The position numbers are program-made. From a virus (Duplodnaviria > Heunggongvirae > Uroviricota > Caudoviricetes), in IMG/VR virus record IMGVR_UViG_2859799533_000010: a stretch of DNA of 46,158 nt. One strand, written 5' to 3'. Below, piece by piece: positions 35,401-41,400 of the stretch (position 1 is the first letter of the stretch; each line of letters starts with the position of its first letter).

Positions 35401-38400
35401 GGAAGCCGGATTACTGGCATCAACAGGAAGTACAGGCGACTCGTATGACAACGCGATGGCGGAGAGCATCAATGGTCTTTACAAAGCGGAGGTAATACAC
35501 CGTAAGAGCTGGAAAAACCGTGCAGAAGTGGAACTGGCCACACTCACGTGGGTGGACTGGTATAACAATCGACGATTGCTGGAAAGGCTGGGCCATACTC
35601 CTCCGGCAGAAGCAGAAAAAGCTTATTATGCTTCCATCGGAAACGATGATCTGGCAGCCTGAGTTCACAGATAAAACACTCTCCAGGAAACCCGGGGCGG
35701 TTCAGCAGTTCAAAACCAATACGCCCGCGAATAAAAGCAATATGATCTGCATCTTCCGGCCACCACACTTCGCTGGTGGCAGCTTTGATCAGGAAAACAT
35801 AGCGCCCGCCCTTATCACGCATGGCACTGGCATGCTTCATGATGTAACGCATGCCGGTGATGTATTGCCCCTCATGCTGACTGGCGCGGCTGTATGGGGG
35901 ATTTCCAAAGGCAGCACCTTTAAGCTCCGCAAGGCGTTCTGACCAGTCATGCGCCAGCGCGTTGTCTTCCGCCGTGTAATACGCAGCGCATTTGGCGTTA
36001 TCACCGTCAGTGAACAGATCCAGAACAAACGGACCAAACAGGGTGTTAATTCCCCAGAAAATGTTGTCCGGCGTGCGCCACTGATCGCCCACTTCCTTCA
36101 GTTCATGGGCTGGTTTGTTCCGCAGTTCCACCAGCTCCTGGCAATATTTATTACTCATTAAGCCCCCACGTAATTCCCTGACAGATACCACTCATCACCC
36201 GATACAGCGCGCTTGCTGCTTTTCCGTAAACACTGCTCACGACGCGCCAGAAAATTGTTTCGTTCTGGCTGGGAGTGGCTTTCACGGAATGCCGCCATCC
36301 ACACCGTTGCAGCACGACGGTATAAGCCCCTGGACTCCAGTTCTTCAGCCTGGCGGGTCAGGCATAAAATCTCCCGCGGGTCGTTAGTGCCGACATAGAA
36401 ATTGCGCACAGGTCTGGTTTCACGAACTGGTTGCCGTTCCGCCTCCGGCGATATCTTTATCTGGCGCGGAAAATGTCTGCGTGTATCCCCTTCACAACGG
36501 TGAGCCACACGCCCACTCTGACGTAACTTGCTTGCTGACTGCAGAACGCGCTGCCGTGAGTAACCTGCAAAAGCATCCGCAATGTCTCCGGAAGTACACC
36601 CCGGATGGGCTTCAATGAATTTCTGAACTTCATTCAAAAGACTCATGATCACCCCCTGAATCCTGCCGGGATCTGGCTGTAGTCCACGTTGTCGTAACTG
36701 GCTTTGAAGTACGGGTCCTCACGTCTGGCTGCAGATACCGCAGGAACTTCCCAGGATTCTTCGAAATGACGATCCGGACCAAAGAACGTGACAGCCTGTT
36801 TCACAAATTGTGTGCCGCTGTTACCCATCGCAGATACCCAGCCCGCATAGCGTTTCACACCTTCCAGCATGGTTTCGGGGTTTACCCCCTCATTCAAACG
36901 GGCTTTCCAGACTTTGAAAGCTGCAGATTTTGAATTGCCACCAGTACGTTTGGGATATGCCAGCCATGCCTGCTCAAACTCCGGAGAGTATTCCGGTCGG
37001 TTTGAACGAACTCGCACAGACTCATCAGCAGATGCACCAACAGCTATTGGTTCATTGACTGGTTCTTTGACTGGTTCAAAAGAGTGACTGGTTCTGGGTG
37101 AATCTCCTGCACTACCCCCTAGTGCAACTCCTGCACTACCTGGTGAATTTGCTGCACCAGATAGTGAATTATTTGCACTACCCCCTAGTGAATCTCCTGC
37201 ACCATCCAGATGAAGGAGATAGATATTACTTGAGTTACCTTTTTCACCTTTCCGGGTGACTTTTTTTACCAGCCCGGACTCACAAAGGGCCGCAATATGA
37301 TTCATCACAGAACGTTTGCTAATCTCGCACTGGTCAGCAATATGCTGGTAGCTGGGCCAGCACTCACCCTGATCGCTGGCATTATCAGCCAGCTTGATCA
37401 GAACCAGTTTTCGCAATGGATTACCCACTCGAATTTTCATCGCTTTAACCATCAGCTCCATACTCATGCTGCACCTCCGAGATGCTTCATGTTTTTTCCG
37501 GAGCGAAAGGCTATAAGCGGCATACTGACGCGGTAATTACGGCCCAGCGGTTCACAAATCACCTTCTGACATTCACGGTCAACCAGGCTGACACGTAGAA
37601 CATGCCCTGCTGGCGTGGTGTACCACTGCCCAACTGTGGGTGTTGATATTTTTTTACGCTGAAATAAACGGTAAATGTTGAGGAGCAACGGATTAAGCAT
37701 GACGATGCCCTCCGCTGATATTCAGGAGACGGTGAATATGAAAATTAGCCTTATCCGCCAGACGAATACGTTCAGCTTGCAAGTTAAGAAGGGTTTCTAC
37801 CAGAACCTGATGTGCCTGCGGATCCGAAAGAGTTACCTTGCGCAGAGCACGTAGTGCAGTTGTTACATAACTGAGTTTATGTAAGTCTTCATCATTCAGA
37901 CGAGTGAGGGCTGGGACAGTAGCCATGATGGCAGCCTCCTTGATCGGTGAAATACTTCCACCACCGGAAACGCCAATTTCGCTGGTGGTGAACTGAACGG
38001 GGTTGGCGTAACCGGTGATCAAGGAAACCGGCGCATCTTTCGATGCCCCCGCCCAGCCCACCATAACTTTGATGTGAGCAAATGCGGACGATAAAAAAGA
38101 CGCTGGCGCGTCATATATCGCCTTGATCAATTCCAGGACGCCAATCCCGGCCCCCGCTTTATAAGGTGCCTGAACAGTGTAACGTCCCGGAATGGCAGAA
38201 TCAATGTGCTGGTGGTCCTTCACACTCAACAAAATCACGCTTGAATTTCCACAAAGGACTAAAGCACTCATGCGGGTAGTCTTTGCGAAGATAGATAACG
38301 CGCTGTGTTTCTGGCTCCCAACGAATAACATGAACATAAAGTCCTCTTCCGTCACGAAACCAGCGGTTAAGTTCCTGCACAACTCGCCCCCCACAGTCAG

Positions 38401-41400
38401 GTAAAGTTCTCTGTGGTTACTTACAGCCAGGAGATTTGGTAATCTGCATTCATGCCGTAACAACAGGTGTTCAGCGACGCTGACCACCAGCTGTTGCGAC
38501 AAACGGTTATTTGCCGTTAAACTGTTCATGCGTTAGTTTCTCCACAGACACAAAACGCCACGACGCCCGGAGCTGCACACTCGCGGGCGTCACTCTTTTC
38601 TGGAGCGCAAAAGATTTTGTAGACCAGTGCTGCATGCTCCTGGAGCTTCGAAATTGACAGATACAACTCATCATTAATTGCTGTCTGCTCGTGTGGCTCC
38701 ACTACCCCATCTTCGATTGCCGAACGAATCTGCTTTGAGTAACTCCCGATCTGTTCGATGACTTCCAGCAGGCGCTGGTTTATATCGGCGTTCTCTACTT
38801 CCTCAATTTCAGGAAGCGATACAAACACCCCACCAGCAGACTGTGCGACAGCATCCGCAATGTAGTGAGTGCCAGCCGCGCGCTGTAAAATCATTGCCCA
38901 TCCCAGCGGGAAAATCTGATCGCCATCTGCACGAAGGCGGTTGAATAAAGCGTTCTCTGTTACATCTAGCCACTCAGCAGCTTCAGCGTACCCCCCCGGC
39001 AACGCCGCGATAGTTTTTCTGACAGCTTTCACGTACCACTCAGGCTGTTTTTCTACTTTCCAGTGATGCTTACCCACGGTTAGCCTCATCGTTCTGTGGT
39101 TAAAAATTGAAGGTGTTCTGTTAATCTTTCGGATAGATATCCGGTCTTAAGTCAGATTTCGTAATTGCACCTGACGTGCATTGCTCAAGTTTTTTAGCCA
39201 GCACAAAACTGGCTTTTTTATAACCATTGAAAACCAGCCGTAAATAGCCTGGTGTTGAGCCAACTTTTCCGGCCAACTCGCCCTGCTGTTCTTTGGTTAA
39301 AGAGTCCCAATACGCTTTCATACAATATGTACCTCCGATATACATATTACATGATTGAGATGAACCTTCAAGATACTTGTACCCTATCGGTACAAAGGTT
39401 TTAATTTCGTTATGAAAACAGTCCATGACATCCGGCGGTCTAACGCCAGAAAACTGAGAGATGGTGTTGGCGGGAATTCTTCCTTTGCCACCATGATTGA
39501 TCGCGAGCCAACCCAGACCAGCAGGTTTATGGGAGATGGTGCTACTAAAAATATCGGTGACAGCATGGCACGGCACATCGAAAAATGTTTCGACCTGCCT
39601 GTCGGATGGCTTGATCAAGAACACCAGACAACAAACATCACAAAAAAACCTGATGTTTCAATTACTAACAAACAAATAACGTTAGTCCCTGTCATATCAT
39701 GGGTACAGGCCGGAGCATGGAAAGAAGTTGGCTATTCTGAGGTTGATTTGAGCACAGCAGAAACTTATCCCTGCCCTGTACCCTGTGGCGAAATGACTTA
39801 TATCTTGCGGGTGATTGGTGATTCAATGATTGATGAGTACCGCCCGGGAGACATGATTTTTGTAGATCCTGAAGTCCCTGCCTGCCACGGTGACGACGTT
39901 ATTGCATTGATGCACGATTCAGGCGAAACCACCTTCAAGCGGTTGATAGAAGATGGAACACAGCGTTATCTCAAAGCATTAAACCCAAACTGGCCTGAGC
40001 CTTACATTAAGATTAACGGTAATTGCTCTATAATTGGTACAGTGATTTTCTCGGGAAAACCAAGAAGATACACAATAAAGGCCTAATCAATATTTATGAA
40101 CCTGCTTCGGCAGGTTTTTTTATGCTTGACAATGTACCCATGAGATACATAATGTATCTAAAAGAAACATAACACAGGCAAGATTAAAACAAAATTTGGT
40201 TGTAACACGGCGTATGGCACATGCGTCGTTAGCGGTCTGGTGACGTTAAAGGGGACAATCCACTCCTTGCTCGAGCAAACAAACCAGGTAGCCGGAATGT
40301 GCAAGTCAATGATGATGCTGATAAGACGCCTAACCAGCGTGGCGATTCGGTTTGACGCCTGGGAAGAGACCAGGGTGCAACGATGAGGGCATTTATGGAA
40401 CCGCGACAAAGTGTGGTGCCGTAACTGGCTAAGTGCTCTCAGCGTTGTGGTAATCCGCGAAATGGCGCGGCGGTAAGTATGGCGGGGTTACTCTTTCCCC
40501 GTTGAGGACACCGGATTGTCAGGTTGACCATACGCCTGAGTGACAACCCCACCACAACAGCCACTGCTTTGGCGGTACCAGTTTGTACACTTGCTTCCGG
40601 CTGGTACCGCTCTTTTTACAAAACAGAGAAGAGCATCACCGGACGACGGGCTCATAACCCAATCCATCCGGGCGGCTGCCACCGCAGGTGTTCTTCTCTG
40701 TTTTGTGGAGAAACCAACCGACCTTGCAGGGTCGATATGATTAGGAGCAGAAAAATGGCTAGCGAACGCAGTACTGATGTGCAGGCATTTATTGGGGAGC
40801 TGGACGGCGGCGTATTTGAAACCAAAATCGGCGCAGTTCTCAGTGAAGTCGCTTCCGGTGTGATGAACACGAAAACCAAAGGTAAGGTCTCACTCAACCT
40901 GGAAATCGAACCATTTGATGAGAACCGTGTGAAAATCAAACACAAACTCTCATATGTTCGCCCGACTAACCGCGGGAAAATTTCCGAAGAAGACACCACC
41001 GAAACGCCGATGTATGTCAATCGCGGTGGTCGCCTGACTATTCTGCAGGAAGATCAGGGACAATTACTGACTCTTGCCGGTGAACCTGACGGAAAACTCC
41101 GCGCAGCAGGTCATTAATATCGTTCTTAATTAACCGATTATTTATCTCATCACTGAATATCTTTATATAGTGAGGACTTATTATGTCTCAGAACTTAGAC
41201 GCAACCGCAATTAATCAAATCCATGCCCTTATTTCTGCTCAGGGTGTTAATGAAATTATCAGTAAGATTGGTGCCGATGCTGTGGCATTGCCTGAGAATT
41301 TCCGCATTCATGATCTGGAAAAATTTAATTTAAATCGCTTCCGTTTCCGTGGTGCGCTTTCCACTGCCAGCATCGATGACTTTACCCGTTATTCTAAAGA

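Follow-up and report, generated by a model that had tools for sequence, protein, structure and literature searches.

A 278-codon 'Ash family' reading frame in an SfV-like lambdoid early-right operon probably spans an overlapping ymfM/DUF4222 gene pair and an isrK/C4-type RNA cassette

In phages P1 and P7, c4 RNA blocks translation at the ribosome-binding site of ant, and its paired segments underlie heteroimmunity (review, PMC12197685). Immunity of phage P4 was reported to act by premature transcription termination (as cited in PMC4825925). In the Salmonella prophage Gifsy-1, transcription of IsrK, described as a structural homolog of P4 SeqA, either ends at the IsrK terminator or continues into orf45-anrP (Hershko-Shalev et al. 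2016, PMC4825925). Specifically, short IsrK activates the translation of orf45/anrP, translation of orf45 is required for downstream expression, and a processed RNA, STnc1160, overlies orf45 (PMC4825925). It was also noted that orf45 is conserved in nucleotides, not in amino acids, and that an in-frame orf45-anrP fusion occurs in S. dysenteriae (PMC4825925). Here we analyzed the virus record IMGVR_UViG_2859799533_000010 (Caudoviricetes; 46,158 nucleotides (nt), hereafter the window), in which a 278-amino-acid (aa) open reading frame (ORF) of the 'Ash family' (37693..38529, minus strand) and a 78-aa ORF, p78 (37464..37700, minus strand), lie between a cII-like gene and the replication initiator. 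With a probability of about 0.8, the region is a mosaic composed of a ymfM/DUF4222 gene pair and an inserted RNA switch of the P1 c4/P4 CI/Gifsy-1 IsrK type in an SfV-like lambdoid early-right operon, and a single frame that stays open across the whole mosaic accounts for the 278-aa 'gene' as well as for the Pfam 'Ash' domain.

Two full-length Rfam hits were found on the same strand within the 278-aa ORF, exactly beneath its Pfam Ash match. The first, an isrK-like RNA (38093..38169, minus strand; RF01394, full model), scored 60.3 bits with a gathering threshold of 50, and the second, a C4 antisense RNA (37981..38068, minus strand; RF01695, model positions 1-87 of 87), scored 82.3 bits (gathering 45, E 9e-15). 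The isrK-like RNA ends in an intrinsic terminator (38093..38112, minus strand; GACGCGCCAGCGUC followed by U6), which was identified by an independent terminator scan. Upstream of the RNA, TTGATT, a 17-nt spacer and TACACT (38176..38204, minus strand) form a correctly spaced putative isrK promoter, which ends 6 nt before the first base of the RNA. The isrK and C4 pair was present in all 13 Ash-bearing relatives scanned (14 cassettes, one relative having two), and was absent from e14 and SfII in the Rfam scan. The C4 fold comprises 27 pairs, of which eight showed compensatory changes on both sides, and 270 of 270 pair cells (100%) were paired; its covariation score was reached by none of 500 shuffles, and slid controls were 32-50% paired. 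Note that the Rfam c4-a1b1 model gave only 16.5 bits on the window. In addition, the window differs from all relatives at position 38152 in the first hairpin of isrK, with G in place of U (GCGGGGGCC versus GCGGGUGCC), and cmscan flags non-standard pairs there.

The C4 RNA of the window has two segments, b' in the second hairpin loop (38017..38024; CCUUGAUC) and a' in the joining segment (38003..38009; ACGCCAA), all of these sites being on the minus strand. Both segments are complementary to a1 (38138..38144; UUGGCGU) and b1 (38121..38128; GAUCAAGG) within the isrK-like leader upstream, and exactly complementary to a2 (37970..37976) and b2 (37938..37945) within a target region downstream (37935..37976). 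The Shine-Dalgarno sequence overlapped by b2 is AAGGAGG (37935..37941) and is followed 8 nt later by an AUG (37926). The same arrangement was observed in each of the 11 cassettes compared, where the pairing of a' and b' with a1/b1 and with a2/b2 extends over 6-12 nt (11/11) and b2 reaches into the Shine-Dalgarno sequence, 8-9 nt before the AUG. These 11 cassettes fall into four a-types and seven b-types, each complementary at both the upstream and the downstream sites. Furthermore, b1, b' and b2 change together, so that four b-types were found among nine near-identical phages, and the hypervariable, non-codon-like differences between phages that are otherwise 92-98% identical represent specificity types. 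In the GenBank record of SfV, a G-to-C difference is present in site a2 (UUGCCGU). In prophage locus L010 of E. coli MSB1_4I (positions 586..2609), the isrK+C4+Rha unit occurs twice in tandem and the two copies differ in b specificity (UGUCAACGG and UCGCACAUG), which suggests cassette duplication or stacking.

We next consider whether the stretch behaves as a protein. Pfam Phage_ASH (PF10554) matches residues 117-210 of the 278-aa ORF (67.9 bits, gathering 26; 1.2e-18), several PHROGs match this ORF, and phrog_1153 matches p78, so that the description of both ORFs in the first-pass annotation as having no recognisable motifs was wrong. The ratio of nonsynonymous to synonymous differences per site (pN/pS) over the 279 nt of the 'Ash' stretch in 11 cassettes was 0.90, 0.93 and 0.90 in the three frames, indicating that no frame of this stretch behaves as a protein. 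The most strongly conserved motifs of the 'Ash' family fall on nucleic acid signals, as MVGWAG... lies on the 5' stem of C4, EAAIMAT on the Shine-Dalgarno sequence and AUG of the next ORF, and IDSAIPGRYT, which is nearly invariant in 11 cassettes, on the putative promoter TTGATT-17-TACACT. The 278-aa ORF thus appears to be a composite of a ymfM-like part, an embedded DUF4222 gene, the isrK/C4 RNA cassette and a C-terminal ORF that we call orf77. The count of two genes in this interval was accordingly too low, because the longer ORF holds a DUF4222 gene in another frame and two Rfam RNA genes.

Upstream of the cassette, residues 1 to ~100 of the 278-aa ORF are homologous to YmfM of the e14 element in E. 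coli K-12 (BLASTP E 1e-7, 32% identity), which occupies the equivalent place after ymfL, and phrog_1170 matches residues 48-98. On the basis of this homology and of the synteny after ymfL, we refer to the first ~108 codons (38205..38529, minus strand) as the ymfM-like frame. A 59-aa DUF4222 gene (38201..38380, minus strand) lies in frame -1 relative to the 278-aa ORF, with a GTG start after GGGGGG; it matches Pfam PF13973 with 51.5 bits (cut-off 27) and phrog_1343 over its full length (1.8e-36). The N-terminal ~50 ymfM-like codons are free of overlap, and the remainder is shared with DUF4222. This overlap was characterized in 10 phage and prophage relatives and in 41 loci from different enterobacterial species (n=51). 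Both frames were open in the 49 loci with an intact, contig-covered DUF4222 ORF, and the third frame was closed in all of them; of the other two loci, one had an early stop in the DUF4222 frame and one was ended by the contig edge. The ymfM frame was open in every locus, where it begins with 'MNSLT' on the ymfL stop, and in loci without the cassette it ends 159-171 nt into DUF4222. Unlike e14 ymfM, the ymfM-like frame of the window has no stop codon at this YmfM-type end (~110 aa, 159-171 nt into DUF4222) and continues through the RNA cassette to 37693.

In the overlap region, pN/pS was 0.30 in the DUF4222 frame and 1.31 in the ymfM frame. The non-overlapping N-terminal half of ymfM had a pN/pS of 0.33 in the common class, with values above 1.2 in the other frames, and of 0.29-0.78 in the cassette-bearing phages. 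At 11 'danger' positions, a synonymous DUF4222 codon would create a stop in the ymfM frame. Such codons were used by none of 48 unique sequences, CTT/CTC and GTT/GTC interchange freely at these positions, and CTG/GTG are common at safe positions, indicating that codons in the overlap are chosen such that the ymfM frame stays open. In most of the 51 loci, the DUF4222 start follows a purine-rich, Shine-Dalgarno-like tract, and in all loci an in-frame stop is located 6-120 nt upstream of this start (most commonly 57 nt). Given that DUF4222 has its own conserved start, the Shine-Dalgarno-like tract and an upstream in-frame stop, a programmed -1 frameshift joining the N-terminal half of YmfM to DUF4222 is unnecessary, and upstream of -6 nt it is impossible in several loci because of the in-frame stop. 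We also rejected DUF4222 as a chance ORF within a real 278-aa gene, which was ruled out by the Pfam and PHROG matches together with pN/pS, and the ymfM frame as a spurious over-call, which was ruled out by purifying selection on its N-terminal half and by codon choice. As judged from these signatures, ymfM and DUF4222 form a conserved overlapping gene pair that shares 53 codons and was previously unremarked. The AF2 model of DUF4222 (predicted local distance difference test (pLDDT) score 85) is a small SH3/KOW/Tudor-like barrel, for which fold comparison gave no significant specific match.

Downstream of the isrK-like RNA, an orf45-like leader frame of 46 codons (37927..38064, minus strand) starts with an AUG at the 5' end of C4. 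This AUG is located at +106 from the predicted isrK 5' end, as compared with +107 for the first AUG of Gifsy-1 orf45. The leader does not end on AUGA in front of the cargo; it continues without a stop into orf77 (37693..37926, minus strand; 77 aa, MATVPALTRL...GGHRHA), which is the C-terminal part of the 278-aa ORF and has its own Shine-Dalgarno sequence and AUG context. The leader and orf77 together give a 123-aa form that matches phrog_4908 over its full length, and orf77 itself matches only the C-terminal parts of phrog_4908 and phrog_3960, with no Pfam and no PDB match. In homologs of orf77 with ~30-45% identity, residues are conserved in a regular pattern, an argument that orf77 is a real protein. 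In UTI89-type and Shiga toxin (Stx)-type relatives, a Rha/Ant-type regulator starts at the orf77 Met, and in a P4-like island an Icd-like protein starts there. As orf77 and the Rha/Ant and Icd-like cargo share this Met and the start MAT(I/V)P(T/A)L, the cassette would end a few codons into exchangeable cargo. Note that orf77 was rejected as a relative of the Icd-like protein, since only the first seven residues match. The island in question, locus L140 of E. coli 7_29_23A (positions 357..1883), contains an 'ash family' pseudogene, the Icd-like division inhibitor starting with MATIPTL, and a 99-aa RgdR-like DUF4222 protein directly before a RepA-family helicase.

The last ORF of the block, p78 (phrog_1153, 1.5e-40), had a core pN/pS of 0.28 in frame and above 1.3 in the other frames, and is by these measures a genuine protein gene. 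Its AF2 model (pLDDT 81) has an N-terminal helix and a five-stranded small barrel with a short helix, and the nearest viral models are DUF1653-like and uncharacterised. We tried p78 as a diverged DUF4222 protein and rejected this, as PHROG cross-matches were weak (E 0.01-0.02), BLASTP gave E 0.047, and profile-profile comparison was not significant (probability 0.9%, E 0.063). The AF2 models of p78 and DUF4222 share the order of strands and helices and the small-barrel fold class, a likeness that we take as a hint, homology being not established.

The ORFs of this region are chained to each other and to their neighbors. The start of the 278-aa ORF shares ATGA (38526-38529) with the stop of a cII-like regulator of the YmfL family (38526..39089, minus strand; Pfam Phage_CP76, 8.5e-15; RefSeq start 39077), which scored 169 bits against NCBIfam phage_reg_YmfL (cut-off 90). 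The stop of the 278-aa ORF and the ATG of p78 overlap by 8 nt (ATGCTTAA), and the stop of p78 shares ATGA (37464-37467) with the ATG of an O-like replication initiator (36649..37467, minus strand; HTH_36/DnaD_N in Pfam; phrog_270, 4e-88). The positions of the two ORFs, now assigned to the minus strand, their translational coupling and their flanking by a cII-like gene and a replication initiator, all put forward in the first-pass annotation, were thus confirmed. Its view that material is inserted between these two flanking genes also held, and this material is accessory. Specifically, the gene order ymfL, ymfM/DUF4222, O is conserved in 41 species, and the 'Ash' block and p78 are found only together, in a subset of loci, and move as a unit; the gene model with a single 278-aa protein gene did not hold. 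In phage SfV, whose region is 98% identical, the counterparts are orf37 ('immunity region') and orf38. A prophage of E. coli ETEC-2265 is 99.9% identical, and RefSeq (Prokaryotic Genome Annotation Pipeline, PGAP) already splits the 278-aa ORF there, with the DUF4222 gene annotated separately; in RefSeq, the 'ash family protein' is shortened to 181-192 aa.

As compared with the Gifsy-1 isrK-orf45-anrP system, the window has an isrK RNA with a terminator, a leader starting at +106 rather than +107, and a structured RNA over this leader. Translation of the cargo would likewise depend on the surroundings of the leader, and the fused leader of the window resembles the orf45-cargo form of S. dysenteriae. 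The two systems differ in that the cargo of the window is orf77 and p78, not the antirepressor-like AnrP, in that the leader is fused, not AUGA-ended, and in that the cassette lies between ymfM/DUF4222 and the replication initiator, not beside antQ. The window and immI of P1 and P7 have the same RNA family (82 bits), in which two exposed segments are complementary to sites upstream (a1/b1) and to sites downstream (a2/b2) of the RNA gene; in both, the downstream site falls on the ribosome-binding site of the leading cargo gene, and natural specificity variants exist. However, the window is a lambdoid prophage with a CI/Cro switch, its cargo is not Icd/Ant, and its upstream sites are embedded in a terminated isrK-type leader. 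P4 immunity (CI RNA, seqA/seqC) is alike by description, as an RNA immunity factor flanked by complementary sites is located upstream of replication genes in the same operon; premature termination is, however, the mode reported for P4. P4 immunity would also be where the name 'ash' and the SfV label 'immunity region' come from. Taken together, the RNA families and their logic are already known, and the window carries the sequence, the structure and the target sites that characterize them. What is new is that the cassette is placed, within a lambdoid early operon, between the ymfM/DUF4222 pair and the replication initiator; the orf77/p78 cargo, the recognition of Pfam Ash as a translated RNA cassette, and the conserved ymfM/DUF4222 overlap are new as well.

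We propose that the C4-like RNA would pair with a2/b2 and block ribosome entry at orf77. Since overlapping stop and start codons link orf77 to p78 and p78 to the replication initiator, the switch would also gate p78 and possibly dampen expression of the replication gene. The isrK-like leader, which has the same sites, may modulate this control either as a competitor for C4 or through refolding of the read-through transcript, as in Gifsy-1, and the natural a/b variants would give each phage its own specificity.

Several points weigh against this interpretation. We infer the promoter, the RNA processing, the RNA ends, the direction of control and its reach to the replication gene, and the putative promoter, which has 8 of 12 consensus matches, is below the threshold of the scanner and was not called. 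The direction of control is uncertain, given that c4 is a repressor in P1, whereas in Gifsy-1 short IsrK acts as an activator of orf45/anrP translation. The cargo is without a recognisable antirepressor, the type of cargo expected of the C4 family, as no Ant/Rha/KilA domain was found in orf77 or p78. The pN/pS of orf77 was 0.51, and the divergence among close relatives is too small for a clean selection test. In addition, the long frame is open across the cassette in 11/11 variants, and the 278-aa length is kept in more than 100 protein clusters with 88-100% identity. Part or all of the long frame may be translated, as orf45 is in Gifsy-1.

The openness and the kept length of the long frame are also what speaks for the older phage annotations, including those of SfV and Ayreon, in which the 278-aa ORF is a genuine single 'Ash family' regulatory protein and the 78-aa protein its partner; the Phage_ASH match and PHROGs labelled 'transcriptional regulator' agree with them. 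We regard such a protein as very improbable. Frame-specific purifying selection was not seen in the 'Ash' stretch, the conserved motifs coincide with RNA stems, with the Shine-Dalgarno sequence and AUG and with promoter-like hexamers, and the variation is compensatory at the RNA level. Furthermore, residues 50-110 are governed by selection on the other frame, an intrinsic terminator lies in the middle of the ORF, which RefSeq already splits, and the PHROG and Pfam labels come from ORF calls, not from experiments. An explanation that leaves the RNA roles in place is that the long frame is translated deliberately besides them. Specifically, ribosomes from the ymfM-like ATG on PR transcripts would suppress the isrK terminator, so that translated lytic transcripts reach orf77, p78 and O, whereas untranslated transcripts from the cassette promoter terminate and give the small RNA. 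The stop at +159..+171 that ends ymfM in cassette-free phages is missing in every cassette-bearing phage, the frame is open across the terminator, and the replication gene lies downstream of the terminator, all as this explanation expects; the requirement for orf45 leader translation in Gifsy-1 is a parallel. However, openness over ~45 mostly conserved codons could reflect chance or inheritance (a rough estimate from variable codons is ~7%, not significant), and lambdoid N-type antitermination could equally explain read-through. We consider deliberate read-through translation unlikely, though not negligible.

Function of the cargo was weighed in the same manner. The first-pass annotation had suggested a replication accessory, a toxin-antitoxin pair or a superinfection-exclusion module. 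Under C4 control, orf77 and p78 might still form such a pair, since both genes are small, overlap each other and are inherited together, the stop codon of p78 overlaps the replication initiator start, and the Met of orf77 is also where an Icd-like protein starts in the P4-like island L140. The P1 icd gene, the first cargo gene of c4, is a growth inhibitor, which also counts in favor of this possibility. On the other hand, no defence or toxin-antitoxin match was found in PADLOC, Pfam or NCBIfam, and none in the PDB for orf77. Homology to a YdaU-like protein, a helicase loader or any other replication accessory was not found in Pfam or PHROGs, and clear homology to a characterised replication protein, which had been named as the finding that would speak against the suggestion, was looked for without success. 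A tie of p78 to the replication gene was not supported either, as p78 follows the RNA cassette and not the type of initiator; both lambda-O-type and DnaD-type initiators accompany it, and cassette-free phages with similar initiators lack it. Moreover, close relatives have Rha/Ant-type regulators in place of orf77. Superinfection exclusion is loosely touched in one respect only, namely that C4-type RNAs act as immunity elements in P1/P7, which is an RNA mechanism and not a module of two protein components as had been envisaged. A functional pair of this kind thus seems improbable to us; the earlier reading is superseded rather than refuted on its own terms, and the functions it proposed are unlikely.

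The ymfM/DUF4222 overlap bears on SfiC, the SOS-inducible division inhibitor of e14. YmfM of e14 was reported to be SfiC, as its expressed clone caused filamentation and loss of Z rings (Ansari et al., bioRxiv 10.1101/2020.11.19.390815); that study had no frame controls and did not mention the overlap. We found an unannotated 59-aa DUF4222 ORF in e14 of K-12 MG1655 (locus L092, 3502..3681), overlapping ymfM (3323..3661). This ORF has a TTG start with AAGGAG 9 nt upstream, is ~61% identical to the copy in the window, and extends with its last 20 nt beyond the ymfM stop, where it overlaps the ymfN start. By coordinates, 53 of the 59 DUF4222 codons, together with the start and the Shine-Dalgarno sequence of this ORF, lie within the published ymfM clone. 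Because of the overlap, both the published ymfM expression clone and the deletion also affect the DUF4222 ORF. It is conceivable, and we put this forward only tentatively, that SfiC of e14 and its counterpart here are the strongly conserved 59-aa DUF4222 barrel protein rather than, or together with, YmfM, and that in cassette phages the ymfM frame may also carry ribosomes through the small-RNA terminator. The first ~100 codons of the window frame are homologous to YmfM and are placed after ymfL with the start on the ymfL stop, as in e14 and the 41 species. The difference is that the window frame is 32% identical to YmfM and has lost its stop, and that division blocking was shown only for the e14 clone. 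DUF4222 also includes RgdR, an active regulator in which the RGD motif matters for activity (Flockhart et al. 2012, PMC3378721). The embedded gene of the window belongs to the same family; it is, however, 33% identical to an RgdR-like 99-aa protein and lacks the RGD motif, reading NRW-FRD opposite TRGDIYRD.

Other features of the window were also recorded. An IS3-family insertion (34449..35662, plus strand), which from its OrfA sequence we take to be IS629-like, interrupts the phage N6-adenine methyltransferase (dam) gene (35544..36191, minus strand). The element comprises orfA (34449-34775) and orfB (34772-35662), with an Rfam IS3-type ALIL frameshift pseudoknot at 34730-34846; in an uninterrupted relative, dam is directly followed by a LexA-like gene. 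In the window, a gene downstream of dam in the early operon (33868..34194, minus strand) encodes a 108-aa protein with a LexA-like N-terminal DNA-binding domain only (phrog_362, 'transcriptional repressor') and no protease domain. A cro-like gene appears as a 167-aa ORF (39121..39624, minus strand), of which relatives annotate the last 66 codons (ymfT, YdaS-family helix-turn-helix, 39121..39321); the extension across the divergent cI promoter region is probably non-coding. Far from the cassette, a full-length Rfam IS009 match (RF02111; 222.8 bits, gathering 117) is located at 2117..2315 on the minus strand.

DNA similar to the region was present in 3011 of 5426 complete E. coli genomes. In addition, isrK/C4-like DNA was found in 299 phage records, including many Stx1/Stx2-converting phages, phiP27 and APSE-2 of Hamiltonella, where it frequently has no annotation or goes under the labels antirepressor, regulatory protein or 'region V'. 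RefSeq uses 'Ash family protein' as a standard name; if our interpretation is true, an RNA regulator is hidden in thousands of protein records, and the N-terminal extensions annotated for cargo genes such as Rha/Ant are false. With the ymfM/DUF4222 overlap, either product again becomes a candidate for the SfiC division inhibitor. The RNA specificity system of the P1/P4 type would be located in the lambdoid early-right operon, directly upstream of the replication genes, in phages that include many Stx phages. Its natural specificity variants, at least 4 x 7, suggest that medically relevant prophages control immunity or induction at a second level, through RNA.

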